Shown piece after piece: positions 8,704 through 42,523 of a stretch of DNA of 64,000 nucleotides. The notes beneath the pieces were generated by a model, which was not told where the DNA came from, ran no database searches, and saw only the letters and a program-made list of their open reading frames with translations. The number at the start of each line of letters is the position of its first letter. Within the stretch, counting starts at the first letter, position 1. Both the position numbers and the translations under genes were made by a program. This stretch comes from Pseudomonadota bacterium (GTDB lineage Bacteria > Desulfobacterota > Desulfobulbia > Desulfobulbales > SURF-16): NCBI GenBank assembly GCA_018816555.1, contig JAHIVT010000091.1:1478-65477 (forward strand), read 5' to 3'.

Positions 8704-10637
8704 TGGATACGATGAACACCTATATCACCACCCCGATTTTTTACGTCAACGCCCAGCCCCACCTGGGGCATGCCTTTACCACCATTGTCGCGGACACCTA
8801 CTGCCGTTACCGCAGGCTCTGCGGTGACGAGGTGATGTTTCAGACCGGCACTGATGAGCATGGCGACAAGATCGGACAGGCGGCCCAGGCAGCCGGGGTT
8901 TCTCCCCGGGAGTATGTCGACCGTATCAGCCATATGTTCCGGGACACCTGGCCCCTGCTGGAAATAGAGCCGGACAATTTCATCCGCACCACCGACCCCG
9001 TCCACATCAAGACCGTGCAGGACATCCTGCAACAGGTTTATGACCAGGGAGACATCTATTTCAGCGAATATTCCGGACTCTACTGCCGGGGCTGCGAACG
9101 CTTTCTCACCGAAAAGGAGTTGGTGGACGGCAAATGCCCGGACCATCAGCAGGCACCGGAAGCGATCAGCGAGCAGAACTATTTTTTCCGAATGAGCAAG
9201 TACCAGCAGTGGCTCATTGATCACATCAACAACCATCCGGAGTTCATCACACCCGAGCGCTACCGCAACGAGGTGCTCTCCTTTCTGAAGGAGCCCCTGG
9301 AAGACCTGTGCATCTCCCGGCCCACCAGCCGGCTGACCTGGGGCATTCCGCTGCCCTTTGATGACCGCTTTGTCACCTATGTCTGGTTCGATGCCCTCAT
9401 CAACTATCTGACCGGCATCGGCTATCCCAATGGCGGGAATTTTTCCCGGGACTGGGCCGTGGCCGAGCATATCATTGCCAAGGACATTCTCAAACCCCAT
9501 GCCATTTACTGGCCCACCATGCTCTGCTCCATCGGCCTGAAGCCTTATAAGAAACTGCACGTCCACGGCTATTGGAACATCGGTGAGACTAAGATGAGCA
9601 AAAGCCTGGGCAATGTTGTCCGGCCGGCTGAAATGGTTGAGGCATATGGCGTGGACACGGTGCGCTATTTTCTGCTGCGGGAAATGTCCTTCGGCCTTGA
9701 TTCAAGTTACTCGACAGATGCGCTGCTCATGCGCCAGAACTCGGACCTGGCCAATGATCTGGGCAACCTCTTCAGCCGTTCGCTGACCATGGTGGCCAAG
9801 TTTGCCGCCAGCCGGGTGCCTGCTCCCGGAACCCCGACAGAAACCGACCGGGAACTCCGCGATACCGCCATGGCCATGCTTGACACCTATCGCCGGGAAA
9901 TGGACAACTTTGCCTTTAACCGCGCCCTGGCCTCGGTCTGGGAGGTCATCAGCCGGGCCAACAAGTATATTGTGGAAAACGCCCCCTGGGATCTGGCCAA
10001 GGATGCAGACAAAAAGGAAAGGCTTGACACGGTTTTTTATTATCTGCTGGAAACCCTGCGCCTTATTTCCCTGACCATTGCGCCGGTCATGCCGACAACG
10101 GCTAGTAAAATGCGCCAGGCCCTTGGCCTTGAGGGCACTGCAGATCTGACCACCCAGGCGGTCTGGGGACTGCTTGCGCCCCAGAGTGTCATCACCCTGG
10201 CCGAGGCGCTGTTTCCGCGGCTGGACACCGGAAAAAAGAAAAAACTAAACGAACCGGCCCAGACCGGAGAGAAAACAAAAAAGAACATGACCACAACAGA
10301 AAATTCTGAAGACGAAAACCTGATCTCCTTTGATGAATTTAAAAAAATTGATTTGCGGGTGGCCGAGGTGGTGGCAGCCGAGAAAATCAAAAAATCAGAC
10401 CGGCTGCTGAAACTCACGGTAATGGCGCCGGAGGAAAGAACCATTGTTGCCGGTATCGCCGAATTTTACGAACCTGAGCAGGTGGTGGGAAAGCAGGTAA
10501 TCATTGTCGCCAATCTCAAACCGACCAAATTAATGGGAGTCGCCTCCCATGGCATGGTTTTAGCTATCAAAGATCAGGGTTCGCTTTTTCTTTCCGCGGT
10601 TTCCTCCCAGGTCACTCCAGGCAGCAAGGTGTCCTGA
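8703..10637 (+). CDS. metG: Methionine--tRNA ligase
   Basis: Class I aaRS motifs PHLGHAFT (HIGH-type) and KMSKS. C-terminal Trbp111/EMAP-like tRNA-binding domain. 644 aa. Confidence 0.95.
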   Translation: MDTMNTYITTPIFYVNAQPHLGHAFTTIVADTYCRYRRLCGDEVMFQTGTDEHGDKIGQAAQAAGVSPREYVDRISHMFRDTWPLLEIEPDNFIRTTDPVHIKTVQDILQQVYDQGDIYFSEYSGLYCRGCERFLTEKELVDGKCPDHQQAPEAISEQNYFFRMSKYQQWLIDHINNHPEFITPERYRNEVLSFLKEPLEDLCISRPTSRLTWGIPLPFDDRFVTYVWFDALINYLTGIGYPNGGNFSRDWAVAEHIIAKDILKPHAIYWPTMLCSIGLKPYKKLHVHGYWNIGETKMSKSLGNVVRPAEMVEAYGVDTVRYFLLREMSFGLDSSYSTDALLMRQNSDLANDLGNLFSRSLTMVAKFAASRVPAPGTPTETDRELRDTAMAMLDTYRREMDNFAFNRALASVWEVISRANKYIVENAPWDLAKDADKKERLDTVFYYLLETLRLISLTIAPVMPTTASKMRQALGLEGTADLTTQAVWGLLAPQSVITLAEALFPRLDTGKKKKLNEPAQTGEKTKKNMTTTENSEDENLISFDEFKKIDLRVAEVVAAEKIKKSDRLLKLTVMAPEERTIVAGIAEFYEPEQVVGKQVIIVANLKPTKLMGVASHGMVLAIKDQGSLFLSAVSSQVTPGSKVS

Positions 10638-10641
10638 ACAG

Positions 10642-11394
10642 GTGGTAAAAGTTAACAAGCAGCCGAGGACTAAAAATTTTTGCGACTTTCTTCAGCTCAT
10701 TGAGGAAGAGGCCGCTCGCTTTTCTGTGGAACTGATCCCGATTGCCGAAGAGACCGGCACCGGCCCCCAGGCCCTTCTGGTTCTGGACAGCACCCTTTCA
10801 GCAAAAAGAAAGGGAGAACTGGCAAAGCCCTTAGTCACCCAGACCTCCCCAACAACAGAGAGAGCGCAGCATATTGCCCTGCCGGCCAGAGCAGACGCGC
10901 TGGCCGGGGCGGAGTTTTTTAAAGACTGTGTCCATGCAGAGCTGGCCCGGGTAAAAAAAAGCAGGCTGCCCTGTTCTCTGCTGCTGATCAGAATTGACGA
11001 AAATAATGAAGACAGGGGCTTGCTCAATAAAGCTGCTGCAACCGTAGAGATAGCCATAGAGTGCAACCATCACCTCGCCCATTTTGACCACGCCACCCTG
11101 GCCCTGCTTCTTCCCGGGCTGAACCGTAACAGGGCATTGCGCCAGGCCTGCGCCATTCATCAATCCCTCTCGGCAGAAATCACTGCCAGGGTGAAAATAG
11201 GACTGGCAGTCTGTATGGCCCGCACAGTGCCCGCAGCAGAAGAATTTATGGAAATGGCGTTTAATGAATTACAAAAGGCGGAACATGAAGCAGGCGATAT
11301 TTTTTACTCCTCCCCCAATCAGGATGATGACTCATGCCAGGTAACCGCAGAAGAACGGGCTCAGCTTTTCAGCTTTCTGAACCGAGGGAAATAA
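10642..11394 (+). CDS. Hypothetical protein with degenerate GGDEF-like domain
   Basis: 250-aa ORF with a GTG start. The second half resembles the GGDEF fold (LLLIRIDENNE, LAHFDHATLALLLPG, KIGLAVC) but lacks the GGDEF signature. Confidence 0.5.
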   Translation: MVKVNKQPRTKNFCDFLQLIEEEAARFSVELIPIAEETGTGPQALLVLDSTLSAKRKGELAKPLVTQTSPTTERAQHIALPARADALAGAEFFKDCVHAELARVKKSRLPCSLLLIRIDENNEDRGLLNKAAATVEIAIECNHHLAHFDHATLALLLPGLNRNRALRQACAIHQSLSAEITARVKIGLAVCMARTVPAAEEFMEMAFNELQKAEHEAGDIFYSSPNQDDDSCQVTAEERAQLFSFLNRGK

Positions 11395-12217: not shown

Positions 12218-12520
12218 ATGTTTGTAATCGGCAACTTTATCAGCGCCCTGGCTAACCTCATTAACTTTGTGCTGGGCGCCTACATGTGGGTCATCGTCGG
12301 ACGGGCGATTATTTCCTGGGTTAATCCGGATCCCTATAACCCCATAGTCCGCTTTCTTTATGACATCACCGAACCCGTGCTTTCCCGAATCCGGCGGGTT
12401 ATCCCTTTTGCATCCGGGGCGGGAATCGATTTTTCGCCAATGATCCTGATTCTTGTCATTCTTTTTTTACAGAGTTTTGTTGTGCCCACCCTGCATGGTA
12501 TTGCCCGGTCATTTGGTTGA
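12218..12520 (+). CDS. yggT: YggT family membrane protein
   Basis: 100 aa and 2-TM. Typical YggT pattern (RAIISWV.PD..NP....L...TEP.L.P.RR.IP). Lies in a divIVA neighbourhood. Confidence 0.8.
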   Translation: MFVIGNFISALANLINFVLGAYMWVIVGRAIISWVNPDPYNPIVRFLYDITEPVLSRIRRVIPFASGAGIDFSPMILILVILFLQSFVVPTLHGIARSFG

Positions 12521-12566: not shown

Positions 12567-13388
12567 ATGTCGCTGACAGCTGAAGATATACAGACCAAGC
12601 AGTTTCATGTCCGTTTCCGAGGCTTTGATATTGAAGAAGTTGACACCTTTCTGGAGCGCATTGCGGAAAATTTTGTCCTGCTCAACGCTGAAAAAAAAGA
12701 GCTGAAAGATAAGGTCGAGAAACTGGAGATGGAAATCAATGAATTTTACTCCCAGGAAAAGACCTTTCAGCATGCCATCATCTCGGCCCAGAGAATTACC
12801 GATGAAATGCAGGAAAAAAGCAGGCAGGAGGCCAATTCCAGACGTGTACGCGTGCAGGAGGAAATAGACCGACTGCGGCAGCAAAGCATAGATGAAATTG
12901 AGCGGTTGCGGAAACAAAGCACAGAGGAAAAAGAGTCCCTTGCGCAGGAAATTGCAGTGCTCCAGGAAAACAAGAGCAAGGTCAAAGAGGAGCTGCGCAC
13001 TTATCTGCAGAGCTATCTGACCTGGCTGGACCGGGATATTTCCCTGGCGGAAAACACCCCGCTTTCCCTGCTGCAGTCTGATATCATGGATGACGGGCAG
13101 CCAACGGTTGCCGACGCGGCAGAGGTTGAGGTTGATGGTATGTATGAAAAGATAAACCTTCCCGATGACCCGCACCCTGTCGAAATGGAAGGGATGGCTT
13201 CGGCTCTGCAGGAGAATGACTCCGGCGAACCTGATGAAGAGGAGGATGGGGAGAGACTCACCATCCCGGACCTCGAAGGGGATATGCTTTTTTCCCTGGA
13301 AGACCCCCTTGATGAAGATGAAGAAAAGGAGCCGCGGCCGGATAGAGGACTGGACGAAGAATTTTTCCACGACATAAAATTAAAATGA
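12567..13388 (+). CDS. divIVA: DivIVA domain protein
   Basis: N-terminal [30 protein letters not shown] is the DivIVA signature, followed by coiled-coil and an acidic tail. Confidence 0.87.
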
Positions 13389-13681
13389 GCTTTCTCCGCG
13401 AGGTTGCGGACAATTCGGTTTCACTGGATCTGTACATTCAGCCCAAGGCATCAAAAAATAGTATCTGCGGTCTGCACGGGGATGAGCTGAAACTTGCCAT
13501 CACCGCTCCTCCGGTGGACGGCAAGGCCAACAAGGCGGTTATCGATTTTCTTGCCAAGCTTTTCGGGGTGGCGAAATCTTCCGTCAGCATCATGAGCGGG
13601 CAGCAGAGTCGCCACAAACGCTGTATGGTCCAAGGGGTCACCTTCCAAGAGGCCAGCAGGGTTGTGAATGGTTTTTTTTAA
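13385..13681 (+). CDS. DUF167 (YggU) family protein
   Basis: 98 aa. Pattern V.PKASKN.I.G...[18 protein letters not shown]. Confidence 0.8.
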
Positions 13682-23597: not shown

Positions 23598-24535
23598 TTT
23601 TTGTTAAGATATTCCTTAAAGAAAAGGTTGCTGAGAAGAGTCATGGTCTTTTTTTCTTTGGCAATCCACTTTTCATTGGCTTTTTTTACAAAAGCCAATG
23701 CACCTGCCTTTTTATTTTTTTTGGAAATAAGCGGCAGACACAAAAAATTTGTTACATTTTCAAAAGGTTCCTCTTTATTAACAATAAAGGATTTTTCGCT
23801 TCTGCTTAATTTTTCTAAAAAGAGCTCTTTTTTATTTTTTAATACCCAACCCATCAAACCGTATTGATCAAAATAATCATACGATAACTCTTTATAAATA
23901 CTTTTATTATTTATTTTGCAGGTAAAATATACAATTTTCTCTTCATAAACAAAAACAACCGCTTCCAGATAAATTATTGCAACCAGTAACTCTAAAAATT
24001 CCTTGGCAAATTCATTCTTGTCCTTGGTATGGACAATTATTTCATTGGCATTGAGTGATAAAGTCAAAAGATTGTCCAATATATTTTTTTCATTTATCTC
24101 TTTTTCTGCATTGATTATTGAGACCAAAACCTGAGCCATCTGCTTCAAAATTTTTTCCTTTTCTTCGGTGAAAACATAGCTTTTTTTGCTGTCAACACAG
24201 AGCACCCCATGATTTTCAGGCAAGGGGATGGCTACCAACGATTTTATATCTTCATCCTTTTCATAAAATTTCAGCGTGGTTGCATCTCTTTTATCGAAAT
24301 AACTGGCCAGTACCGATTTCTGTTCCCTGAAAACCCAACCAATAATACCTTCTCCGTTCAGCACCTTACAGTCCTTTTTAATATTCCGGCTGAGTGAATG
24401 ATAATAATAAAGAATTACCCCCTCGGCATCACTGTCATCAGCTAAAAAAAGACTGGTTGTATACGACTCCATGGTGTTGGAAATCAGTTCGATAAATTCG
24501 TATATCCGGGGCATTGCTTTCATAGGAAAAGACAC
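23594..24535 (-). CDS. Tandem GAF-like domain protein (function unknown)
   Basis: 313 aa and strongly AT-rich. Both halves show the GAF pattern (GEGIIGWV...LVAIPL..., then GLMGWV...FLCLPL...). Overlaps the mreB start by 4 nt, suggesting an operon. Confidence 0.6.
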   Translation of the reverse strand: MSFPMKAMPRIYEFIELISNTMESYTTSLFLADDSDAEGVILYYYHSLSRNIKKDCKVLNGEGIIGWVFREQKSVLASYFDKRDATTLKFYEKDEDIKSLVAIPLPENHGVLCVDSKKSYVFTEEKEKILKQMAQVLVSIINAEKEINEKNILDNLLTLSLNANEIIVHTKDKNEFAKEFLELLVAIIYLEAVVFVYEEKIVYFTCKINNKSIYKELSYDYFDQYGLMGWVLKNKKELFLEKLSRSEKSFIVNKEEPFENVTNFLCLPLISKKNKKAGALAFVKKANEKWIAKEKKTMTLLSNLFFKEYLNKK

Positions 24536-24939
24536 TCTAAAAATTAAAAGATTAACTGTCTAATTTTATTATTATTTTTTATGTATTGGTACAAATATGT
24601 TGAGCATACTATTATTATTGAATTTTTCTCGTTTTTAAACTATAGTTTTGACACGTAACATTTTGTTTTTCAGAGTAAATTATTAGGTTAACCGACACTT
24701 TTTTGGGTAAGGTGTTTATTTTGTTTTGATAACATGTTGAAAACTTTTTTCCCTTATTTTTTTCACCTTTTTTCAAAACTCTATTTTTATTAAAATAAAT
24801 AATAAAATTAGATCTTTACGTTAGTTTCTAACATTATAACAGATTTAATAATAATAGAATAAATTTTAATATATATCTTATTTTTTATACTTCCCCGGTT
24901 AAAAAACATCTCCGTCAGCCAAACAAAAAAGGATTTACC

Positions 24940-26070
24940 ATGTCTCTTATTCTTAATATCGCCAGAGAAGATTTTATATATGCTCTTTCCTCCATGCAGA
25001 ATGTTACTGGAAAACCAGGTACGATTGCTATTTTGGGAAATGTTCTTCTTCGCAGTGCTAACGATTCGCTTGAACTGACAGGGACAGACCTGGAAGTCGG
25101 TATCCGACAGATAATACCGGCAGAGATACTTTCCCAGGGATCCATCACCCTGCCTTCAAAAAAACTTTTTGAAATAGTGAGGGAATCCAACTCAGCGCAT
25201 ATTTATATCGAGGAGATAGAAAATAACTGGGTAAAAATAAAGGCGGATTCAAGTGATTACAATCTGGCAGGAATGGCGAGTGATGAATTCCCCTCTTTTC
25301 CTGAACACAAAGAAGAATCCCTTATCGAAATAGATGCCGAGAATATAAAAGATCTTATTGAAAAAACGATTTTTTCCGTCGCCTTGGACACGGAAAGTAA
25401 TTTTACCCTGACAGGAATCCTGGTAGAAAAAGAAATAAAGGAAGATAAAAGATATCTGCGTATGGTATCCTCTGACGGTCACCGACTCTCTCTGATGAAA
25501 AAAGAGGTGAAAGGTGATATTTCTCTGTTTAATCTTGATAAAACCACCATTATTCCCAGAAAAGGGGTCCAGGAAATAAAAAAATTCTGTGAACACCATG
25601 AAACCCTTTTTATTGGATTTGAAGAAAAACAAGTAGTTATCAAGGGCGATCACGCCATTCTCATCATCCGTCTCATGAACGGTGATTTTCCTGATTTCCG
25701 CAATCTTCTGCAGATAATCAACAAAGAAAAATTCATAGAAATCAATAGACTCGTTCTGCTGAATGCCATGCGGCGCATGAATCTTTTTACCGAAGACAGA
25801 TTCAATGTCGTCAAATGCCATATTGAAGATAATGAAATAAAATTAAGTTCCCAGAGTATGGATTTAGGAAATGCCCAGGAAGTTCATCCTGTCAAGTACA
25901 CGGGAGATTCAATAAAACTCGGATTTAACGGCAAATACTTCATTGATACCCTGCAGGTTATGACATGTGAAGAAGTCAAACTTTTTATTGAGGGGAAAGA
26001 CAGACCTTGTCTTGTCTACTCTGAAAATGAACCTGATTTTATCAGCATTATTATGCCCATGGAAATTTGA
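24940..26070 (+). CDS. dnaN: DNA polymerase III beta sliding clamp
   Basis: 376 aa, the length of a three-domain clamp. Family-typical N-terminus and C-terminal ...IIMPMEI ending. Followed by gyrB. Confidence 0.92.
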   Translation: MSLILNIAREDFIYALSSMQNVTGKPGTIAILGNVLLRSANDSLELTGTDLEVGIRQIIPAEILSQGSITLPSKKLFEIVRESNSAHIYIEEIENNWVKIKADSSDYNLAGMASDEFPSFPEHKEESLIEIDAENIKDLIEKTIFSVALDTESNFTLTGILVEKEIKEDKRYLRMVSSDGHRLSLMKKEVKGDISLFNLDKTTIIPRKGVQEIKKFCEHHETLFIGFEEKQVVIKGDHAILIIRLMNGDFPDFRNLLQIINKEKFIEINRLVLLNAMRRMNLFTEDRFNVVKCHIEDNEIKLSSQSMDLGNAQEVHPVKYTGDSIKLGFNGKYFIDTLQVMTCEEVKLFIEGKDRPCLVYSENEPDFISIIMPMEI

Positions 26071-26197: not shown

Positions 26198-28618
<2,421 letters not shown>

Positions 28619-28806: not shown

Positions 28807-31299
28807 ATGACTGAAAACGAGCAAGTTTTATCACCGACCATTTCCATAGAAAAAGAGCTGAAAAAATCCTATCTCGATTATGCCATGAGCGTCATCATAG
28901 GAAGGGCCCTGCCTGATGTACGGGACGGGCTCAAACCCGTTCATCGCCGCTCTCTTTTTGCCATGCGGGAACTGAGCAATTATCATAACCGCCCCTATCT
29001 GAAATCAGCCAGAATCGTCGGTGATATCATCGGTAAATTTCACCCCCATGGTGATACGGCTGCCTACGATACCATTGTCAGGATGGCCCAGGATTTTTCC
29101 ATGCGTTATCCCCTGGTGGACGGCCAGGGAAACTTTGGTTCCGTTGATGGTGATTCCCCGGCGGCCATGCGTTATACCGAGGCCAGGATGACCAAGTTGG
29201 ATCAGGAAATAATTGCTGATCTGGAAAAAGAAACGGTTGATTTTATCCCGAACTACGATAATTCCTTGGCTGAACCGGTAGTCTTTCCGACCAAAATACC
29301 CAACCTGCTGACAAATGGCTCTTCCGGTATAGCCGTCGGTATGGCGACCAATATCCCGCCGCATAATCTCAATGAGATTATGGATGGGATCATTGCCATG
29401 ATAGATGACCCGCATATTACGGTGAATGGCCTGATGGAGCATATTACCGGGCCGGATTTTCCCACCGGCGGTTTTATCTGCGGCAGGGCCGGCATACGGG
29501 AGGCCTATGAAACCGGACGCGGCTCTGTTTTAATGCGGGCGAGAAGCCATATAGAAAAAAGCAAAAAGATAAATCGCGAATCCATTATTATTGATGAAAT
29601 TCCCTATCAGCAGAACAAGGCAAGACTTGTGGAGAAAATTGCCTTGTTGATCAAGGAAAAAAAGATTGAATCAATTGGCGAGATACGTGATGAGTCAGAC
29701 CGCCACGGCATGCGCATCGTTCTTGAGTTGAAAAAAGATGAGTTTGCCGATGTGGTGCTCAATCAGCTCTACAAGATGACCCCGCTGCAGAAGAGCTTCG
29801 GCATCATATTCTTGAGTATTGTCAATTCCCGGCCGGAAGTTCTTAACCTCAAACAGATGCTGGAGCACTTTATCCAGCACAGAAAAACTGTGGTTTACCG
29901 GCGTACGGATTTTGATCTGAAAAAAGCCGAGGCCAGGGCCCATGTACTGGAAGGACTGACAGTAGCCATCAACAACATGGATGAGGTCGTGGCCCTTATC
30001 CGGGCATCGGCAAATCCGTCGGAAGCCCGCTTGGGACTCATGGAGAGGTTTAATCTCTCCGAGATACAGGCCCAGTCCATCCTTGATATGCGGCTGCAGA
30101 AACTGACAGGGCTGGAACGGGAAAAAATTATCAGCGAACTTAACGAACTGCTGGAAAAAATAGCAGTGTATAAACAAATTTTAACTGATGAAACCCTTGT
30201 CATGAAGATTATCCGGGATGAGTCTCTGGAAATCAAACAACTCTATGGAGATGAACGGCGGACAGAGATCATTGACGCCCCGGATGAGATTCTGCCGGAA
30301 GACATGATCCAGACGGAAGACATGGTGGTAACCGTCACCCATGGCGGCTATATCAAGCGAAATTCCGTTGATCTGTACCGTTCCCAGCGGCGCGGCGGCA
30401 AGGGCATCAAGGGTATCACCGCGGTTGAAGAGGATTTTGTCAACAATCTCTATCTTGCCTCAACCCATGATACCTTCCTATTTTTCACCAACCATGGCAA
30501 AGTTTTCTGGCGTAAGGTTTATGAAATTCCCCTGGCCAGCCGTATTGCCCGAGGCAAGGCCATCGTCAATCTGCTTGAGCTGTCCGAAAATGAGCAGGTG
30601 GCCGCCATTCTGCCGGTTACGAGCTTTGATTGCACCGACAGAGAATGCTATATTCTGATGGTCACCAAAAAGGGTGTGGTGAAGAAAACGGTTATTTCCG
30701 AATTCGCCAGACCGATGCGCAAAGGAAAAATAGCGCTGACCATCAGGGAAGACGATGAAATTATCAGTGCCGCCATTACCAACGGCACAAGTCAGATTCT
30801 TCTGGTATCCCACAAGGGCATGGCTATTCGTTTTAATGAAGATGACGTGAGGAGCATGGGCAGAACAGCCGCCGGCGTGCGCGGCATCAAGCTGGCCAAA
30901 AATGACCATGTGGTGGCCGCAGTGGTCATTGACAGCGATGATTCCATTCTGGTGGTCACGGAAAACGGCTTTGGTAAGAGAAGTCCGGTGGAAGAGTACA
31001 GGCTGATAAAAAGAGGCGGCAAGGGTGTCTATGCCATCAAGCCCAGTGAACGAAACGGCAACATCATCGGCGCCTGCCAGATTACCAAGGAAGATGAGAT
31101 CATGCTCATCACCGATCAGGGCAAAATCATCAGGATGGATATGAGCGCAGTCAGGGTTATCGGTCGAGCCACCCAGGGTGTGACGCTGTTTAATCTGGAA
31201 TCGGGTGAAAAGGTGGTGGCCATGGATATGGTCCCTGCCACCGATGCCGTGGATGAAGATGATGAAGATGGAGAGGAAACGGAAGATCAGAGTTCATGA
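28807..31299 (+). CDS. gyrA: DNA gyrase subunit A
   Basis: HPHGDTAAYDT, catalytic-Tyr segment AAMRYTEARM, C-terminal beta-pinwheel repeats and an acidic tail. 830 aa. Confidence 0.97.
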   Translation: MTENEQVLSPTISIEKELKKSYLDYAMSVIIGRALPDVRDGLKPVHRRSLFAMRELSNYHNRPYLKSARIVGDIIGKFHPHGDTAAYDTIVRMAQDFSMRYPLVDGQGNFGSVDGDSPAAMRYTEARMTKLDQEIIADLEKETVDFIPNYDNSLAEPVVFPTKIPNLLTNGSSGIAVGMATNIPPHNLNEIMDGIIAMIDDPHITVNGLMEHITGPDFPTGGFICGRAGIREAYETGRGSVLMRARSHIEKSKKINRESIIIDEIPYQQNKARLVEKIALLIKEKKIESIGEIRDESDRHGMRIVLELKKDEFADVVLNQLYKMTPLQKSFGIIFLSIVNSRPEVLNLKQMLEHFIQHRKTVVYRRTDFDLKKAEARAHVLEGLTVAINNMDEVVALIRASANPSEARLGLMERFNLSEIQAQSILDMRLQKLTGLEREKIISELNELLEKIAVYKQILTDETLVMKIIRDESLEIKQLYGDERRTEIIDAPDEILPEDMIQTEDMVVTVTHGGYIKRNSVDLYRSQRRGGKGIKGITAVEEDFVNNLYLASTHDTFLFFTNHGKVFWRKVYEIPLASRIARGKAIVNLLELSENEQVAAILPVTSFDCTDRECYILMVTKKGVVKKTVISEFARPMRKGKIALTIREDDEIISAAITNGTSQILLVSHKGMAIRFNEDDVRSMGRTAAGVRGIKLAKNDHVVAAVVIDSDDSILVVTENGFGKRSPVEEYRLIKRGGKGVYAIKPSERNGNIIGACQITKEDEIMLITDQGKIIRMDMSAVRVIGRATQGVTLFNLESGEKVVAMDMVPATDAVDEDDEDGEETEDQSS

Positions 31300-35348: not shown

Positions 35349-35711
35349 TCACGACCCCTTTGTTTCCGCCCAGCGTCTAATCTCCTTTACTATCCGCTCA
35401 GGATCAGGAGCGTTGCTCAGCATTATTTTTTTGAATAATTCGTAGTACCTGATTTGAATAAAATCAAATTGGCAGCCAATCCCGTCAGCATTAGAATGAA
35501 TGACCCTGCAGGTAAATTCAACCTGCCCCAACAGTGTAAGACTAATATATTCATCAGGCAGCACTAGCGGTATATGATCAAGCTTGATAAAAGCGCCCGC
35601 AAAACTTAAATTCAGTGTATGACCTCCCAGCACCAATTCACGACGAGGTAGCTCTAATTTCACCTTAAAATTCAGAGGAAGTCGAAGATGTTTTCTACAC
35701 TCTTTTCTCAT
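35349..35711 (-). CDS. PilZ domain protein
   Basis: 120 aa with RxxxR (RKHLR) and (D/N)xSxxG (NLSFAG) c-di-GMP-binding motifs at the expected spacing. AT-rich. Confidence 0.75.
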   Translation of the reverse strand: MRKECRKHLRLPLNFKVKLELPRRELVLGGHTLNLSFAGAFIKLDHIPLVLPDEYISLTLLGQVEFTCRVIHSNADGIGCQFDFIQIRYYELFKKIMLSNAPDPERIVKEIRRWAETKGS

Positions 35712-35799
35712 AATTTATTACTATACAATTTAGGGAGATAGTTTGTTACGTACAGTAGTAATATAACGTTTTGAACTGTTTGGAATATTCAGATATTTG

Positions 35800-35823
35800 A
35801 TGTGGCAATCTCAAGGGCTGAAC
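35800..35823. repeat. 24-nt perfect direct repeat, copy 1 (ATGTGGCAATCTCAAGGGCTGAAC)
   Basis: Identical to 39519-39542. Homology extends leftward (56 of 76 positions by hand count) and stops abruptly at ...GAAC. Confidence 0.9.
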
Positions 35824-35903
35824 GTCTTGGTCGGTGGCGCGCCTGGTGCTTGCCCGCCTAGGCCACCCGACCTCTTCGCGTCCACTGTACTAAATTGTTA
35901 GCC
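35817..35903 (-). repeat. attC-like imperfect palindrome downstream of the cyclase-like gene
   Basis: On the gene strand: GGCTAAC ... GTCGGGTGGC-loop-GCCACCGAC ... GTTCAGC. The stem has one bulged base. The spacing of the left core is asymmetric. Confidence 0.4.
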
Positions 35904-35912
35904 GATTATTTA

Positions 35913-36938
35913 TTATTTCCCGAAAAAGTGCGGCAAATCCATATCCAACTTAAACCTTAGTGATAAAAAAGGATAATCAGTAATTTTTGACTTTTTATTC
36001 ACATCTTCAAGTAATGGCGTTGAAGAGTTCAATGAATTAAGTACCTGTTTTTCAAGTTCGTCGTTCTCTGAGTGTTTAAAATTTTCATACTCCTGAAATA
36101 ATTGAAGGTTTGATAAAACAGAGGTGTTTAGTCGTCTGAATGTGTGACGTTTTTTCATAATGTCCATTTCTATGGAGGAAGAAACAGACCAAGTGCTGCG
36201 AGGAGGTATAGTCTCTTTGTGTCGGTATTCGTATGGCGTTACAAGTGACGACTTAGTATTAACGAATTTAGAAAACCCTAAGATCGCATAGGCTGGCTGG
36301 CAGTATGAAATGGCCACGGCAATATCATCTTCGACATAAAGGTGATTTCCTTTTATTCCAGCTGAACTCCCTTTTGTTTCAGCTTCGTATGCAGTTGAAA
36401 TCGAAAAGTTTGCAGAAAAAAAATCGTCTTTTCCTTTTCTTGTATTAAAGCATTTTCGTAATCCTGATGCGACAACAGTGCGACACCCTGGGAAGCTTTT
36501 CTCAAACTCACATGCATTAATGTATTTATGTATTCTTGCAACAAGTCCAAGGAACTTAGCTACATTACCACCAGCGTCAGCTACAGTTCCAGAAGGGTCA
36601 GACTTCCCATCCTGTTTAGATATTTCTCGCAATTGCTCAATTGAAAAACCACCACTTAAACGAGTTTGCCCTATTGGGGGGGCAAGATTCTCAATATCGA
36701 TTCCAAGAAAAAGTGCATCATTAAAACGGAAGTATTCAAGCCCGTTCGGGTATAGTTGAGGGTACTCGTTTTTTTCATTCTCAAATAGCTGAATGGCTTT
36801 CTCCAAAGAGTTAAGCCTTTCTATTGCTTGGCCGCCAGTTTCCGTTCTTATGTCACAATTTGCAACCATAATATGGTTTGAGAACCCAAGGAGATCTATC
36901 TGAGCTGCGCAAGACCATCGTACATCTGGATTAATCAC
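35913..36938 (-). CDS. Orphan protein with nucleotidyl-cyclase/GGDEF-like palm motifs and a ~120-aa C-terminal extension
   Basis: 341 aa. The ordered motifs AAQIDLLGFSN (first metal Asp), FRFNDALFLGI (second Asp), helix AKFLGLVARIHKYI, CRTVVASGL and FFSANFSISTAYEAE mimic the class III cyclase / GGDEF / mCpol fold. Assigned by eye only. Confidence 0.5.
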   Translation of the reverse strand: MINPDVRWSCAAQIDLLGFSNHIMVANCDIRTETGGQAIERLNSLEKAIQLFENEKNEYPQLYPNGLEYFRFNDALFLGIDIENLAPPIGQTRLSGGFSIEQLREISKQDGKSDPSGTVADAGGNVAKFLGLVARIHKYINACEFEKSFPGCRTVVASGLRKCFNTRKGKDDFFSANFSISTAYEAETKGSSAGIKGNHLYVEDDIAVAISYCQPAYAILGFSKFVNTKSSLVTPYEYRHKETIPPRSTWSVSSSIEMDIMKKRHTFRRLNTSVLSNLQLFQEYENFKHSENDELEKQVLNSLNSSTPLLEDVNKKSKITDYPFLSLRFKLDMDLPHFFGK

Positions 36939-36951
36939 TTTTTTTCTCCTA

Positions 36952-37050
36952 GGCTAACATGAAAATCAGCAGTTTATCCGGTGCATTTTCTGGTTGAAGT
37001 TTAGTATCTTGGCCCTGGGATTCCTCTTCCGTCTTCCGTCGCAGTTATTT
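36952..37050 (-). repeat. attC-like element between the Mrr-nuclease gene and the cyclase-like gene
   Basis: On the gene strand: AAATAAC (overlapping the TAA stop) ... CTTCAAC-CAGAAAATG-loop-ATTTTCAT-GTTAGCC. The terminal GTTAGCC is the exact complement of GGCTAAC at the far end of the next gene. Confidence 0.4.
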
Positions 37051-37932
37051 ACTTGAAATTGCATTAAAATAATCAAGTATAGAGTTGTGGTGTATTAATT
37101 CGACGCCGTTCGCCAACGCCAGATCACAGGCCGACCTCGTAAAAGACGAATTTGATATAACAACAGCATAATCGGTTTTGTAATACCCTCTTGCTGCAAT
37201 GATTTCTTGCACTGCTTTGTTGCCAACAGGGGTATTGTAATATTTTGTTTGTATGGCGACCGACACACCATCATTGCGTGTAGCCATGACATCAAGCCCT
37301 TGGTCTCCACTTGCTTTAGATACTTCAGCGTTCCATCCATTGGCGTAATCATTTATAGTTTTTGCCACAGCATGTTCATATTCAACTCCATTGTTTACTA
37401 ACTCAAATGAAAATGCATCTGTATTATCATTCTTAATGCGTTGGGTTAGTTCGTTATCTATGGAGTTAAACAATAAAGGGAATATGCCTTGATCGTAAAA
37501 TATCTGGCTGTTGTACATACGCCAAAAATCATCTTTATCTTTCTCGCTAACATGCGTGATACGCCATAGGGAATGTTTTAATTTTTCGTTTAACAACGGA
37601 ACTGCTATATTTGTAACAACTTTCGACAAATTGTTATTAAACTTGTCTCTGTTTTCAATCCCGTATCCATCCGTTTGGACGCCTATATGATAGTCTTTCT
37701 TTAATTGAGCATAGTGCCTATCTATTGTCATGGTGGCTATGGCCATGATGTAATTTGATATAAAAATATTATCCCATTTTAGATTTTCTTTATCGTTAAC
37801 GATTCTGTTGACTCCTTCATCGATTACTGCATGTTCAATTGATCCTTCAAAATCGTTTGAATATATGTTAGCAAGCTCAGCCAACAATTCTTGCCGATTG
37901 TTTTTTTTGTTGCCAAAGAATGAAAAGACCAT
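37045..37932 (-). CDS. Protein with unknown N-terminal domain fused to an Mrr-type (PD-(D/E)xK) restriction endonuclease domain
   Basis: 295 aa. The C-terminal ~115 aa match the Mrr_cat pattern (GVEYEHAVA...GDQGLDV...VAIQTKYY...VQEI....GYY..DYAVVISNSSFT..A..LA..NGVELI). The N-terminal ~180 aa have no recognised motif. Confidence 0.7.
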   Translation of the reverse strand: MVFSFFGNKKNNRQELLAELANIYSNDFEGSIEHAVIDEGVNRIVNDKENLKWDNIFISNYIMAIATMTIDRHYAQLKKDYHIGVQTDGYGIENRDKFNNNLSKVVTNIAVPLLNEKLKHSLWRITHVSEKDKDDFWRMYNSQIFYDQGIFPLLFNSIDNELTQRIKNDNTDAFSFELVNNGVEYEHAVAKTINDYANGWNAEVSKASGDQGLDVMATRNDGVSVAIQTKYYNTPVGNKAVQEIIAARGYYKTDYAVVISNSSFTRSACDLALANGVELIHHNSILDYFNAISSK

Positions 37933-37968
37933 CTGTTTGATCCTCCGTATCTATAGACAGTGGGTGGC

Positions 37969-38026
37969 GAATAACGTGGCCTTCAGTAGCGAGCGAAGCG
38001 TGTCGGACTGAAAGGCATGGTTGGGC
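37969..38026 (-). repeat. attC-like 58-nt imperfect palindrome
   Basis: On the gene strand: GCCCAAC-CATG-CCTTTCAGT-loop-ACTGAAGG-CCAC-GTTATTC. The left core matches RYYYAAC exactly, and the stem has bulged bases. Confidence 0.5.
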
Positions 38027-38084
38027 GAAATTATTTTCATTCGTTGTCTTCTTTGCTTACCACATTATTGCCATGATCTTTATG

Positions 38085-38318
38085 TTAATCTTTGTCTTGC
38101 GAGTTCTTGCCAGGAAATAAATTTGGGAAATCAAGCACTATATAGATCAAGGCCGGAACTAAAAGAAATAACCACCCGAGCGTTCGTAACAAATTCGGGT
38201 ATTCCGGAGAGCTTTCTAATAATAGATAGTCAGGGGCGTATATCCTATCCAGTATACTCAATATTGCACCTATGATGGTTAAAGTAGCCGCGATTAATTT
38301 TAGATCCCTTTTGCTCAC
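38085..38318 (-). CDS. Small two-TM membrane protein (hypothetical)
   Basis: 77 aa with two hydrophobic helices (LIAATLTIIGAILSIL and LGWLFLLVPALIYIVL). Sits in the cassette-like context. Confidence 0.5.
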   Translation of the reverse strand: MSKRDLKLIAATLTIIGAILSILDRIYAPDYLLLESSPEYPNLLRTLGWLFLLVPALIYIVLDFPNLFPGKNSQDKD

Positions 38319-38343
38319 TGTAATTCTCTTATTTTAGTTCTTT

Positions 38344-38403
38344 GCGCCCAAATGCCTGACAGCGTCAGCACCCCCGCGCCCCTTACCGTCGCCTAAATTG
38401 ACT
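38344..38403 (-). repeat. GC-rich imperfect palindrome, weak attC-like
   Basis: On the plus strand: GCGC-CCAAA-TGCCTGAC-AGC-GTCAGCA-CCCCC-GCGC. The gene-strand TTTGGGC is complementary to the GCCCAA of the next downstream element. Confidence 0.3.
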
Positions 38404-38415
38404 TGATATGCATCC

Positions 38416-39126
38416 TCATTTAATTGGTGCTGTGCAAAATTCAATAAAACCTTTTCCTAAAGGAGAAACTCTGTTTCCAAGTAGGTGTAAACCTTGACCG
38501 GATGTCATTGTGTTGAAAATAGTTTTATCTGTGCTTATTAAGCCATAGCGGTACAGATCGCCAAAAGCTGATTCAATCACTTCTAACTTGATTCCAGGTA
38601 TAGCAATCGGGAAGAAGTCTGAAAATCCACCTCTAATTTTTTCTTGGGGAATGTTGTTTTCGTTAAGATAGTCACTGGGTTTTGCCATGAATTTCAACAT
38701 TCTTACATGTAGAACAGATAATGTATTGACTAAATTAAGAAAATATTGCTTTTCATCCTCCGACAGGTTCGAACCGATAGCAGAGTTGATTAAAATCCCT
38801 CGGAAAGCCTCAATTTTTTCTCTTTGATAATTATCAGCCACTCCTCTGAAGCAATTCTCAAATATGTATGCGAATTCATCAGTTTGAAGCTGCGTTTCGT
38901 TTACCTGATCTTGGAGTTTATCCAGGTCTTGAGCAATCTTTTCGGCGAACTGTTCAAGGCGTTGGAATTTTGAAGATGGTATATAATCGCTCATGAGCGA
39001 TGCAATTCCACCGCAGAACGGAGCCGTTGCTAACCCTGCTTTGATTATATTTACAAGGTGTTCAGTCGCACCCGATGCAGCAGCTTTTTTAATTTTCTGA
39101 ATCAGAGCATTCGTTTCTTCTGGCAT
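38416..39126 (-). CDS. Hypothetical protein (orphan, mainly helical)
   Basis: 236-aa ORF with plausible composition. N-terminal Gly/Ala-rich amphipathic segment (GLATAPFCGGIASLMS). No catalytic motif recognised. Confidence 0.6.
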   Translation of the reverse strand: MPEETNALIQKIKKAAASGATEHLVNIIKAGLATAPFCGGIASLMSDYIPSSKFQRLEQFAEKIAQDLDKLQDQVNETQLQTDEFAYIFENCFRGVADNYQREKIEAFRGILINSAIGSNLSEDEKQYFLNLVNTLSVLHVRMLKFMAKPSDYLNENNIPQEKIRGGFSDFFPIAIPGIKLEVIESAFGDLYRYGLISTDKTIFNTMTSGQGLHLLGNRVSPLGKGFIEFCTAPIK

Positions 39127-39179
39127 AGCATTTTCCTATTTCTATAATGCCTATCGAAATATGAGTTTTTACGGCGCGT

Positions 39180-39220
39180 AGCCAACGTAAAAAACCTGTT
39201 GGACTGAACCGCTGAAGCGG
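39180..39220 (-). repeat. Short core-like palindromes (AGCCAAC..GTTGGAC, CTGAAC, CCGC-TGAA-GCGG)
   Basis: On the gene strand: GTCCAAC (exact RYYYAAC) - 11 nt - GTTGGCT, preceded by GGTTCAG. This is too short for a canonical attC. Confidence 0.3.
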
Positions 39221-39518
39221 GCCTCATACCCTTATCATTAATATAGGAGTTTTTACTCAGATATTCCCTTGTTAACGAAAAGAAGTAGCACTTTTGAGAG
39301 GAGGTGACAAGCAGGAATAACTGCAAATGATCCGGTTTGTTTTTCTTCAGCTTTTTTGCTGTCTAAAATGTATCTTTTACGACCCACCTTAGTTGAGATT
39401 TGTCATGGCAAGGAATACGCCTGACAACATTACCGCAAGTTAACATAATTCCTGATTCTTCGAGGGACGAACAGTAGATCTAATAATCTGAGAATAGTTT
39501 GATTTTTTCAGATGTTCT

Positions 39519-39542
39519 ATGTGGCAATCTCAAGGGCTGAAC
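39519..39542. repeat. 24-nt perfect direct repeat, copy 2
   Basis: Identical to 35800-35823, lying 3719 bp away. Confidence 0.9.
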
Positions 39543-39588
39543 AAGCCGCATAAGCAGCGCTGCCAGGAAGCTTGTGCGGTTGTTGGGG
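39536..39588 (-). repeat. attC-like 53-nt imperfect palindrome
   Basis: On the gene strand: CCCCAAC-AACCGCACAAGC-14 nt loop-GCTTATGCGG(C)TT-GTTCAGC. A 15-bp stem with one extrahelical base and one G-U pair. Confidence 0.45.
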
Positions 39589-39620
39589 GGATTTTATAAT
39601 TTAATGGACATCCCTATCCT

Positions 39621-39650
39621 CCTGAATCCGTGATACCTCACGGATTCAGG
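39621..39650. other. Perfect 13-bp stem hairpin (CCTGAATCCGTGA-TACC-TCACGGATTCAGG)
   Basis: Seen directly. Lies 50 nt beyond the stop of the PEP-CTERM gene. No clear U-tract follows on the gene strand. Confidence 0.5.
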
Positions 39651-39699
39651 ATATTTTGATGAAGCTTTATTAATTCCTCATTGAAGCCAAGTCCAAATA

Positions 39700-40431
39700 T
39701 TATTTATTGGTTTTCATCATTTTTGATCTACGAACAGCAAACATACTTCCTAAGCCGGAAAAGAGTAGTACTACGCTAGCAGGTAGGGGAACCGGATTAA
39801 CTGCAACACCAAAAAGTCCTGCATTATTGCTGTATGGATCACCAATATCCGGGTGCTGGATACTAAAACGAAATGTTTGTGATGCATCACTCTGGATATT
39901 TAACTGCAAAAGGTAAAAAGTGGCATCATCTTCCCAATAGCTGATATTACCTGTAGTAGTACCATCGGCCAGGGTGGCTTGATAACTAGCATCTCCAACA
40001 TACCCTGCTGACATCCAAATTGTCATTTGTGTTAGACCTGCTGGCAGAAGAATATCGACTGCAGGTTTATCGTATTGGTAGCCGGAATGATCACCAGGAA
40101 AGGGGGCTGAAGAAGTTGGCAATGCACCGTCTACGTATGTGAAATATGGATAATTAGCTGTAAAAAAATCTATTGATGTTCCCCCAGGAACAGTGGAAAC
40201 AAGTGTTGTTGTATTACCGCTGCCGGTAGTGGATATCATATTTCCACCAGTTTTCTCATTAATACCTACTATAGCCCAGTCGAGTTGACCATATGAAGTA
40301 ACATCGAAACTTGAGCCATATGATATTTGATGCAATGTATACTGATTAATGGAACTCGCGCTAGATGTAGATGCTCCACACAAAACGGTTACTAATAAGA
40401 TCACAACCCATACTATTTTTTCCATTTTCAT
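39700..40431 (-). CDS. PEP-CTERM sorting-domain secreted protein
   Basis: Start reassigned to ATG 40431, preceded by AAGGAGG at 6-nt spacing. Has a signal peptide. The C-terminal VPLPASVVLLFSGLGSMFAVRRSK is a PEP-CTERM-type anchor. Confidence 0.8.
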   Translation of the reverse strand: MKMEKIVWVVILLVTVLCGASTSSASSINQYTLHQISYGSSFDVTSYGQLDWAIVGINEKTGGNMISTTGSGNTTTLVSTVPGGTSIDFFTANYPYFTYVDGALPTSSAPFPGDHSGYQYDKPAVDILLPAGLTQMTIWMSAGYVGDASYQATLADGTTTGNISYWEDDATFYLLQLNIQSDASQTFRFSIQHPDIGDPYSNNAGLFGVAVNPVPLPASVVLLFSGLGSMFAVRRSKMMKTNK

Positions 40432-41281
40432 AAAATCCTCCTTTTTAATTAAAGTTAAAATTTGGTTCACTCTATATGGTGTTTACCTCCTTAACAGGCT
40501 TTCGAAAAAGTCTGACATTTACTATTTTTTATGGAAAGGATACTAAGTGGATGGTCGTAACTGTCTGAATTTACGTAAAGCAGAAACTGAGAACTGGTCG
40601 TTTTTATTGCTGAAAATCGTTTTTCAACATCCTGTTAACAAAGTCAGTAGGCCGGTTGGCGCCGCGCGCAGCGGGCGCCACCTAATTATTATCTCGCGCA
40701 TGGTTTTTCCGCCGATTCCCTTCGCTGGTTATGGGCTGTTTGCGATAAAACGTAGGCGATTTTATCATTATCTCGCAAGCCAAGCTTGATAACGATAAAT
40801 ATTCAATATTAAACGTGAAATAATTTCCCGGTGACCATGCTGCCGCTAGGATTCCGTTTCCCCCTAAAAACAGAAAAGCCGAGCTACCTCAATATTCAAG
40901 GCAACCCGGCTAACTTGTTAAAGTTCCGTGGCTTTCTGTCCCCACTTCACAATGGGTTTAGCTTTATCTATTACTCCATCCTAACAGACCCATACAAAGT
41001 AATATTTGTTTTGTAAATAGGGTAATTTGTCGCACCTTTTGACAGTTAAAAATGGCAAGAGGTTCAGATTGGCAATCTTTATCTTGGAAAGAGCACGACA
41101 ACTTGAGATGTTTCCTGAATTTCTTAAGATTGCCGCAGAGTATACGTAACAAAAAAAATCCGGTGGGACCGATTCATGCCCTCCCATGGATAACACTCAC
41201 CAGAGACAACATATTTCCAAACTATACGTATTCCAGGCTAATATCGAATGAATGTTGCAAAATATTGCAACATCGAAGGGA

Positions 41282-42523
41282 TCACTTGCCTCGATGATCG
41301 GCAAAGGGTGTATACAGGGGATCGCCGATCAGCACCATCTTCCAGGAGAGGTGAGGCAGGCTGAAAAAATAGCTCTCCACCAGATTTTTTCCGCCCAGGA
41401 GAAAGGCAAAAAAGAGATCCGGCGGCGGAAAGGCGTTCACGTAAGGTTCCCCCACCGGGCCGATGGTGGCGGCCGCCCCTTTTTCCAGCATCCTCTTGCA
41501 CCAGACCTGGCTTCCTTCCTTTTTCAGCGTGCTGCATTCGCTGCTGGCGATATGATAGCCCACTGCCCCTTTCTGCCAACTGAAGGCGTCAATGTATTTG
41601 GCCAGGCTGTACCAGCCGCAGTAGAGTGCGGCATCGCGCGTAACGCCCGGTTGAAACAGGGCGCTTTGTTCATCAACAACCACATTACTCATCCTGCCAC
41701 TCTTTCTGACAACCTCTGCGGCACGATGAATGGCCCGGTCATACCAGGCGTAGCTGTTCACCTGCTTCAGGCCGGGATCCGGCCAACGGGCATCAAAAAA
41801 GGCATCGCCGCGCAAGCCCTCCTTTTCTGCTGACAGGGCATCAGTGATCATCTTTCGGACAAGCTCCGGGCTTGAGCCGTCAAGCCGACTCACCATGAGC
41901 ACATCCTCTTTAGCGAAGGGCAGAAATTCGTCATGCAGATCCCGATAATAGGGGTTCGGCAGCCAGTGGGCCAGGGGATGGGTCTGCAATACCAGGGTCA
42001 GTTCGGAATCCACCGCGGCCCGCATGTCATTTACTTTGGTGTAATAGGATATCTGATTTTTAATATCGCTGATCTTGCCGCTTAACGAATCAAGCATGGA
42101 TTCGTCTTTGCCGTGATCAAGCGACAGGGTGATTTCCTCTATATTTTTCGATAACTGGGCAATGGTTTCGCTTCCCTGGTCGGAAAGGGCCGGGGTGCTG
42201 ATTTTCAGCGGTACCCCGTACATGGTCACCAGACAGCGGATAGTATTTTGGGGGGAATGCTGGTTGAGAAAAGAGAGGACGGGCGCGGCTATGAGATTGT
42301 CATAATCGCTGCGTTGGCAATCTTCCGCCGGATTCATGTTGATGGTGATGAGATTTGCGGAGGGGATGCGGCGCTGGTCCATATAGAATCTGGCCAGGCT
42401 GATGCTCTCCGGCTCCTGTTTGTTGGCAATAACGGCTATTTCATCGGCGGTGAGGCCATAGCCAGGCATAGCTGTCAAGACGATGGCGCCCAGCAGCATG
42501 ATACAGGAGAGCAAGGTGGCCAA
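41282..42523 (-). CDS. Secreted hypothetical protein (resembles the TIGR03790 conserved hypothetical family)
   Basis: 413 aa with a signal peptide. N-terminal LTADEIAVIANKQEPESISLARFYMDQRRIP. The family assignment is from memory only. Confidence 0.55.
   Translation of the reverse strand: MATLLSCIMLLGAIVLTAMPGYGLTADEIAVIANKQEPESISLARFYMDQRRIPSANLITINMNPAEDCQRSDYDNLIAAPVLSFLNQHSPQNTIRCLVTMYGVPLKISTPALSDQGSETIAQLSKNIEEITLSLDHGKDESMLDSLSGKISDIKNQISYYTKVNDMRAAVDSELTLVLQTHPLAHWLPNPYYRDLHDEFLPFAKEDVLMVSRLDGSSPELVRKMITDALSAEKEGLRGDAFFDARWPDPGLKQVNSYAWYDRAIHRAAEVVRKSGRMSNVVVDEQSALFQPGVTRDAALYCGWYSLAKYIDAFSWQKGAVGYHIASSECSTLKKEGSQVWCKRMLEKGAAATIGPVGEPYVNAFPPPDLFFAFLLGGKNLVESYFFSLPHLSWKMVLIGDPLYTPFADHRGK

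Follow-up and report, generated by a model that had tools for sequence, protein, structure and literature searches.

A probable integron cassette array lacking a nearby integrase in a low-GC island of an uncultured SURF-16 bacterium

Results

A probable chromosomal cassette array without an integrase in the window

[quoted passage not shown] The whole stretch analysed, hereafter the window, is 64 kb long (positions 1,478 to 65,477 of the contig), and the cassette-array genes and spacers occupy its region 35817-39588, with all open reading frames (ORFs) co-oriented on the minus strand. A first-pass annotation, made from the letters alone, had proposed a CALIN-like array here, and this proposal stands: matches to attC models fall on the correct strand in the spacers, and homologs of three of the four ORFs occur elsewhere in attC contexts, one of them in a complete integron next to an IntI. 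The heptamers that it quoted are all found at their places on the minus strand, and the ORF list bears out the single orientation of the genes.

By the definition of Cury et al. (2016, PMC4889954), a CALIN has two or more attC sites that share a strand and are spaced by less than 4 kb, and intI is absent from the vicinity. Such clusters average five attC sites, and most have no intI pseudogene nearby (PMC4889954). Here, attCs at 35.9, 37.0 and 38.0 kb lie on the minus strand less than 4 kb apart, and the window holds no intI. The GC content of the island (~35.3-41 kb) is 38-45% vs ~53% around it, and selD and a phosphate-transporter operon flank it. A cassette is a promoterless ORF with an attC behind it, and the bottom strand of this attC folds to an imperfect hairpin that is cut by the integron integrase at AA|C. 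Read on the gene strand, the cut is G|TT, so that every cassette begins with bases taken from its own attC.

Three spacers contain attC-type sites

An Rfam search of the window returned a c-di-GMP riboswitch and no match to an attC family, so we built our own covariance models, all trained solely on sites outside the window. Model R1 (10 GC-rich attCs from three metagenomic arrays) scored two window sites at 11.5 and 9.1 bits and missed that at 35816-35903; it was judged too narrow and widened in two rounds. Model R2 was made from 16 environmental attCs found by R1, and in a control on 30 kb with class-1 attCs, which it had not seen before, it recovered nine of them (27-51 bits) and gave no false match at E < 0.01. 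Model R3 combined 29 sites (20 environmental and nine from class-1 integrons on plasmids) and was run with filters off over both strands of the whole window (128 kb). Its top three matches (25.0, 20.1 and 14.9 bits) are all on the minus strand in three consecutive spacers, and every other match is at or below 11 bits. These spacers together cover ~360 nt, and by simple inference the top three would be placed there by chance with a probability of ~1e-8. The covariance-model check suggested by the first-pass annotation, carried out with our own model, thus returned the three best matches of the window in the array.

The highest-scoring site is the 88-nt attC of a cyclase-like cassette (35816-35903, minus strand), which extends from R'' GGCTAAC (35897-35903) to R' GTTCAGC[C] (35817-35823) and is the best window match of both R3 (25.0 bits, E 9e-4) and R2 (22.3 bits). 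In its 5' half the site can be aligned to attCs from homologous cyclase-like cassettes. In the bottom-strand fold the R boxes are paired and two extrahelical T stand on the 3' arm, and two A-C mismatches of the top strand become G-T pairs. A 58-nt attC (37969-38026, minus strand; R'' GCCCAAC at 38020-38026, R' GTTATTC at 37969-37975) ranks second with R3 (20.1 bits, E 0.014; R1, 9.1 bits) and has an L box of 9 bp, in which a single extrahelical base stands on the '' arm. The third site is a short attC of 48 nt that belongs to an Mrr-like cassette (36952-36999, minus strand; R'' CTTCAAC at 36993-36999, R' GTTAGCC at 36952-36958). It scored 11.5, 13.4 and 14.9 bits (R3: 14.9, E 0.27), ranks second or third in the window depending on the model, and keeps the L'' motif AAAATGCACCGGA, and it is probably decayed.

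All three model-supported sites show the bottom-strand fold of an attC, i.e., an R box, an unpaired spacer, an L box and extrahelical bases on the '' arm, and extra bases on the 3' ('') arm of the bottom strand are a known attC trait. A naive scan for AAC...GTT plus a stem found 20 matches in the window vs ~9 in shuffles and was dropped as too unspecific. With folding and scanning of bare palindromes near shuffle level, the palindromes are weak evidence alone, and sequence, structure and comparison with other loci are needed. When sequence and structure are scored jointly, the three sites exceed chance as attC-type sites.

The same genes are cassettes in other genomes

Three of the array genes were found in cassette arrays at comparison loci (L-numbers) from elsewhere: the cyclase-like gene (L009, L017, L029, L035, L036), a gene for a 236-aa protein (L060, L064, L067) and the Mrr-like gene (L052).

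The cyclase-like gene (35913-36938, minus strand) encodes 341 aa with a class III nucleotide-cyclase-like fold as predicted by AlphaFold2 (AF2) and Foldseek. The protein has 98 database homologs, including some in metagenome-assembled genomes (MAGs) of Desulfobacteraceae, Bipolaricaulota, Thermotogae and Vicingus, and the neighbours differ from locus to locus with that one gene alone in common. GTTAGCC precedes the gene in L009, L017, L029, L032 and L036, as it does in the window (36952-36958), and GGCTAAC with a canonical attC follows a few bases after the stop in the same five loci and in L035, again as in the window (35897-35903). The attCs of the homologous cassettes score 27-55 bits, and L009 is a textbook array in which each cassette start is complementary to the R'' of its own attC. 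In the window, the first-pass annotation had seen a perfect match between the start of this cassette and its own inverse core; the 7/7 complementarity (GTTAGCC/GGCTAAC) is confirmed and is conserved in at least five homologous cassettes.

Three observations concern other loci with this cassette. A GGDEF gene follows it in L005. In L008/L005, a Desulfobacteraceae MAG with the homologous cassette after hisD, a truncated tyrosine recombinase of 251 aa (L008 7476-8308, minus strand; L005 14103-14935, minus strand) lies beside an IS91-family transposase; its best NCBIfam match is the integron integrase, at 87.9 bits vs a cut-off of 265, and it may be an intI remnant. It was not used as evidence, and neither was a recombinase near the homologous cassette in L015, which is Xer-like.

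The 236-aa gene (38416-39126, minus strand) shows weak similarity to Abi_alpha (PF14337, E 0.0037, below the cut-off). It has 370 homologs at 60-92% identity, and three database homologs carry PF14337. The locus L060 is a complete integron, with LexA, IntI (TIGR02249, 362 bits; cut-off 265) and then cassettes, the fourth of which is an 81% homolog. The attCs of the homologs in L064 and L067 score 43.1 and 39.7 bits. Homology among L060, L064, L067 and the window starts at G[A/T]TA[T/G]GC, which reads GATAGGC in the window and is complementary at six of seven positions to the cassette's own R'' GCATATC, a case that the first-pass annotation had missed. In this cassette family ATC/GAT replaces the canonical AAC/GTT in R''/R' (GCATATC ... 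GATATGC); the cassette start in L064 is GTTATGC. A pairing of 236-aa and 345-aa genes in L010 was considered as a conserved operon and rejected, the 236-aa proteins being unrelated.

The third gene (37045-37932, minus strand) encodes 295 aa with a C-terminal Mrr_cat restriction-endonuclease domain (PF04471, 2.6e-17). In L052, a homolog with 47% identity is followed by GCCCAAC AAAAAGGTCAAGCCGAC, the 5' half of an attC; an 82-aa gene upstream of it was tried as a relative of the 77-aa ORF of the window and is unrelated. This 77-aa ORF (38085-38318, minus strand), putatively coding and with two predicted hydrophobic helices (2-TM), comes from the ORF list, had no family match in the Pfam and PADLOC scans, and lies between a truncated attC and that at 37969-38026; an attC follows it, and its cassette start is not definable.

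Two further own-core matches had been claimed for these genes and did not hold. The start TTTGGGC that the first-pass annotation gave to the 2-TM cassette lies, by homology, in the variable region of the truncated attC of the upstream cassette, and its match to GCCCAAC is therefore unusable as a cassette boundary. For the nuclease gene, a 6/7 match to AAATAAC (37044-37050) had been claimed; the model places R'' at CTTCAAC instead, and because of this placement the own-core rule fails for this cassette, the start of which is complementary to CTTCAAC at three of seven positions. With boundaries defined objectively, core complementarity thus survives in the cyclase-like cassette and is lost in two of the three cases quoted.

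State of the cassettes and of the remaining junctions

Two units clearly keep the cassette format and end in an attC, namely the Mrr-like cassette (37968 to 36952) and that with the cyclase-like gene (36957 to 35816). By comparison with its homologs, the 236-aa cassette has kept the conserved start and lost the 3' third of its attC. In this truncated attC (38343-38411, minus strand), R'' GCATATC (38405-38411), L'' and most of the variable part are kept, and L' and R' are lost. It aligns base for base with the attCs of L064 and L067 from R'' over ~65 nt, to ...TTTGGGCGC, and then diverges. With L' and R' missing, it does not form the attC fold, and R3 gave no match at 38343-38411.

The junctions at 39.2 and 39.58 kb are either degenerate attCs or no attCs at all. 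Upstream of the 236-aa cassette (39149-39204, minus strand), the cassette start GATAGGC (39149-39155) is preceded by a hairpin (GTTTTTTACG/CGTAAAAAC) and GTCCAAC; R3 gives 9.6 bits here (39180-39204), from the R boxes alone, and a degenerate attC is possible. The palindrome at 39536-39588 (minus strand; CCCCAAC at 39582-39588, GTTCAGC at 39536-39542) has a 10+5 bp stem with one bulge on the ' arm. It has no R3 match on the gene strand (7.6 bits on the opposite strand), lacks a spacer, and carries its bulge on the wrong arm for an attC, and its status as an attC is not supported. The first-pass annotation had read a palindrome in every spacer as an attC; three do score as such, one is truncated and that at 39.58 kb is not recognised.

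Between these two junctions lies a segment of ~330 nt without an ORF (39205-39535, minus strand; largest ORF at most 74 aa), the first 36 nt of which repeat the sequence after the last attC. Copy 1 of this direct repeat (GTTCAGCCCTTGAGATTGCCACAT...) is at 39507-39542 and starts exactly at the GTT of the 39.58-kb palindrome; copy 2 (35788-35823) starts exactly at GTT as well, overlaps R' of the last attC and leads into a gene for a PilZ-domain protein (35349-35711; PF07238, 1e-10). Both copies and the PilZ gene are on the minus strand. The copies are identical at 33 of 36 positions, 24 of them in one exact run, and this 24-mer is found just twice in the window. Both begin where an integron crossover would fall and hence look like the related starts of two cassettes, the first leading into the ORF-less segment and the second into PilZ. 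The repeat may go back either to a duplication or to the insertion of a block of cassettes. A wider kinship of the ORF-less segment with the PilZ cassette was rejected, as the first 36 nt are common (up to 76 nt at 74%) and no protein similarity exists.

The PilZ gene forms the distal end of the array and shares its low GC. No attC follows it, and its end is 24 nt from the stop of the convergent selD. On the other side, directly upstream of the array, lies a gene for a VPLPA/PEP-CTERM sorting-signal protein (39700-40470, minus strand).

Weighing the evidence

The absence of an integrase from the surroundings, already claimed for both sides of the array, was confirmed across the 64-kb window: tblastn with IntI1 found nothing at E <= 1, no box II or LGH..Y catalytic motifs of tyrosine recombinases occur in the six frames, and PF00589 had no match among the 20 window ORFs scanned by Pfam. 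The segment is therefore not a complete integron, as intI, attI and the cassette promoter Pc are lacking next to the array and the upstream gene is the riboswitch-controlled VPLPA-CTERM gene.

Several points weigh against a CALIN. Of the six junctions, two or three cannot be recognised as attCs, one site alone falls below E 0.001, and the third is at E 0.27. The scores come from a home-made model and not from that of IntegronFinder, its calibration was shortened, and its E-values are rough. The folding z-scores of the sites as DNA (-0.6 to -2.4) are no better than those of shuffles; in the folding check that had been suggested, the extrahelical bases on the '' arm appear in three sites and the energies are uninformative. 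The R'' of the 36952-36999 site is not complementary to its cassette start and two of its L-box pairs are broken. To our knowledge, no functional attC is as short as its 48 nt. Neither an empty site nor another cassette order was found, the eight other contigs with window proteins, seven of which overlap the array, being 100% identical to the window; the look-up for other versions of the locus found no record of the PilZ protein.

Alternatively, an integrase in trans might have placed the cassettes straight into the chromosome, the target being a non-att secondary (attG-type) GTT site, without an integron ever existing at the locus. Integration of cassettes at places other than att sites has been demonstrated (bioRxiv 10.1101/2022.09.11.507474) and has been named as one origin of CALINs (Cury et al., PMC4889954), both of which we count in favour of this explanation. 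Both flanks consist of housekeeping genes, an intI pseudogene is absent for at least 22 kb in either direction, the distal end after PilZ has no attC, and both copies of the 36-nt repeat start exactly at GTT, all as such an insertion would have it. However, conservative site-specific recombination does not produce a 36-nt duplication, and at the upstream junction (39536-39588) a palindrome stands in place of plain chromosomal DNA. Low GC is moreover common to the neighbouring PEP-CTERM and PilZ genes, and the foreign block therefore exceeds the cassettes. We consider direct insertion possible but rather unlikely.

It is far less probable, and largely refuted, that the segment is an ordinary horizontally acquired defence island in which chance palindromes or terminators account for the hairpins and the AAC/GTT heptamers coincide by accident. 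Low GC, the nuclease and Abi-like content, the weak folding z-scores, a naive stem scan barely above shuffles and two junctions missed by the attC model would all fit, but the top three model matches of 128 kb would not fall in consecutive gene-strand spacers, and the same genes would not recur elsewhere as single-gene units with the same ends, in canonical attC arrays and beside IntI. Between the ORFs, the gene strand also lacks terminators with T-runs. That the palindromes form part of a genome-wide family resembling repetitive extragenic palindromes (REP) or miniature inverted-repeat transposable elements (MITE), unrelated to gene boundaries, is an explanation we give almost no credence. 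It accounts for imperfect palindromes in intergenic DNA and nothing further, whereas the sites are dissimilar to each other, the remaining 58 kb of the window gave no comparable match to the attC model, the 24-mer at the array ends occurs just twice, and repeat searches of the 64-kb window show no such family. Within the window, the REP-family check named in the first-pass annotation accordingly found no such palindromes outside the island.

As a CALIN, the array would have been assembled by an IntI that is encoded elsewhere in the genome or has since been lost, and it may now be eroding. At most, the units between the sites at 38.0, 37.0 and 35.9 kb could be moved by an integrase provided in trans. 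Promoter and terminator scans of the array sit at shuffle level, and a scan of the gene strand found no T-run terminators between the ORFs; because these scans are at background, the cassettes would be expressed by read-through from upstream transcription.

Predicted cargo and relation to known systems

The cargo, i.e., a nuclease, an Abi-like and a cyclase-like protein, is likely of anti-phage type, as judged from domains and predicted folds. On the 295-aa protein, PADLOC matched the Mrr-like nuclease parts of ZorD, PDC-S02 and type IV restriction endonucleases, a match at the domain level only. The 341-aa protein has no Pfam, NCBIfam or PADLOC match. Its AF2 model (predicted local distance difference test, pLDDT, 78; predicted template-modelling score, pTM, 0.83) was matched by Foldseek to CyaC (1wc3, E 1.7e-5) and also to the Pycsar cyclases 8jsf and 8jsz, which supports a cyclase-like protein at the level of the predicted fold only. 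The conserved acidic residues D15 and D74 sit in the motifs DLLGFS and FNDALF. The predicted fold thus resembles CyaC, Cya2 and the Pycsar cytidylate and uridylate cyclases, but identity is 9-14%, the template-modelling (TM) score is ~0.5-0.6 on the target, the protein has an extra C-terminal part of 140 residues, and an effector gene is adjacent in no locus.

Like the CALINs described (PMC4889954), the array is small, consists of co-oriented ORFs that are mostly without function by annotation, and has no intI or intI pseudogene nearby. It differs in its eroded junctions, with one 3'-truncated attC, one 48-nt attC and two unrecognisable sites. With sedentary chromosomal integrons (L060) it shares the 236-aa family (81%), the cassette format and attCs of the form R''-L''...L'-R' with extrahelical bases; unlike them, it has no integrase, attI or Pc in the window, and its attCs are unlike one another. 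In large sedentary arrays, attCs are usually homogeneous. The compact single-gene nuclease, Abi-like and cyclase-like folds recall the defence cassettes reported in 'Mobile Integrons Encode Phage Defense Systems' (bioRxiv 10.1101/2024.07.02.601719), although the genes here are defence-like by fold or domain and the Mrr domain alone matches PADLOC.

The array leaves the known picture of integrons unchanged. It is a small integrase-less array in the chromosome of an uncultured bacterium in which stages of attC decay (truncated, shortened and intact) stand together, and it points to three widespread uncharacterised families, i.e., the 341-aa (at least four phyla), the 236-aa and the Mrr-domain proteins, as integron cassettes worth anti-phage testing.

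Cyclase-like genes in AT-rich arrays

Homologs of the cyclase-like gene are also carried by AT-rich, co-oriented metagenomic gene arrays (L010, L021-L028, L030-L033) that show no canonical attC. Every junction there has a hairpin that is imperfect (CCCATTTTCTTAGA...TAGGGAA) and then a conserved core, GGTCAATAATTCGGTAAC|TTTT, beyond which homology is lost. We counted 27 distinct copies of this element in 10 loci, and L026 has eight copies; in L010 the hairpin and GGTCAATAATTCGGTAAC|TTTT occur at 9727-9830, 11098-11157, 12305-12353 and 13387-13487. The element could be a divergent attC type or belong to another cassette system. That the cyclase-like cassette is shared by integrons of the canonical type and by co-oriented gene arrays of a second kind is an improbable reading. 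Were this element the site at which a distinct cassette system, or a very divergent class of integrons, recombines, genes would flow between two cassette systems, with the array in the window at one end, and its cyclase-like, Mrr-like and Abi-like genes would be defence modules portable as single genes. About 45 nt past one copy of the element a group II intron (RF02005, 70.8 bits) starts, and a tandem glycine riboswitch (RF00504, 58.8 + 47.3 bits) lies inside the AT-rich array of L010 (772-1013).

Surroundings of the array

The VPLPA/PEP-CTERM gene upstream of the array is controlled by a c-di-GMP-I-GGC riboswitch (40896-40971, minus strand; Rfam) with a terminator-like hairpin (40877-40911). 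PilZ, encoded by the gene that closes the array, is a c-di-GMP receptor domain. The PEP-CTERM gene is directly followed by a perfect inverted repeat of 14 bp with a loop of 4 nt (39620-39651, z -6.2); its T-run is on the plus strand, and it would therefore terminate transcription from the opposite direction. On the pit/phoU side, the island is flanked by a gene for a 413-aa TIGR03790-family protein (41282-42523, minus strand; 1e-86) without a Pfam match. The window also contains a GC minimum (31%) that coincides with the minimum of cumulative GC skew at 24000-25000, immediately upstream of dnaN (24940-26070), which is followed by gyrB (26207-28618) and an 830-aa ORF (28807-31299, probably gyrA); the replication origin is probably located in this part of the window, ~11 kb from the array.

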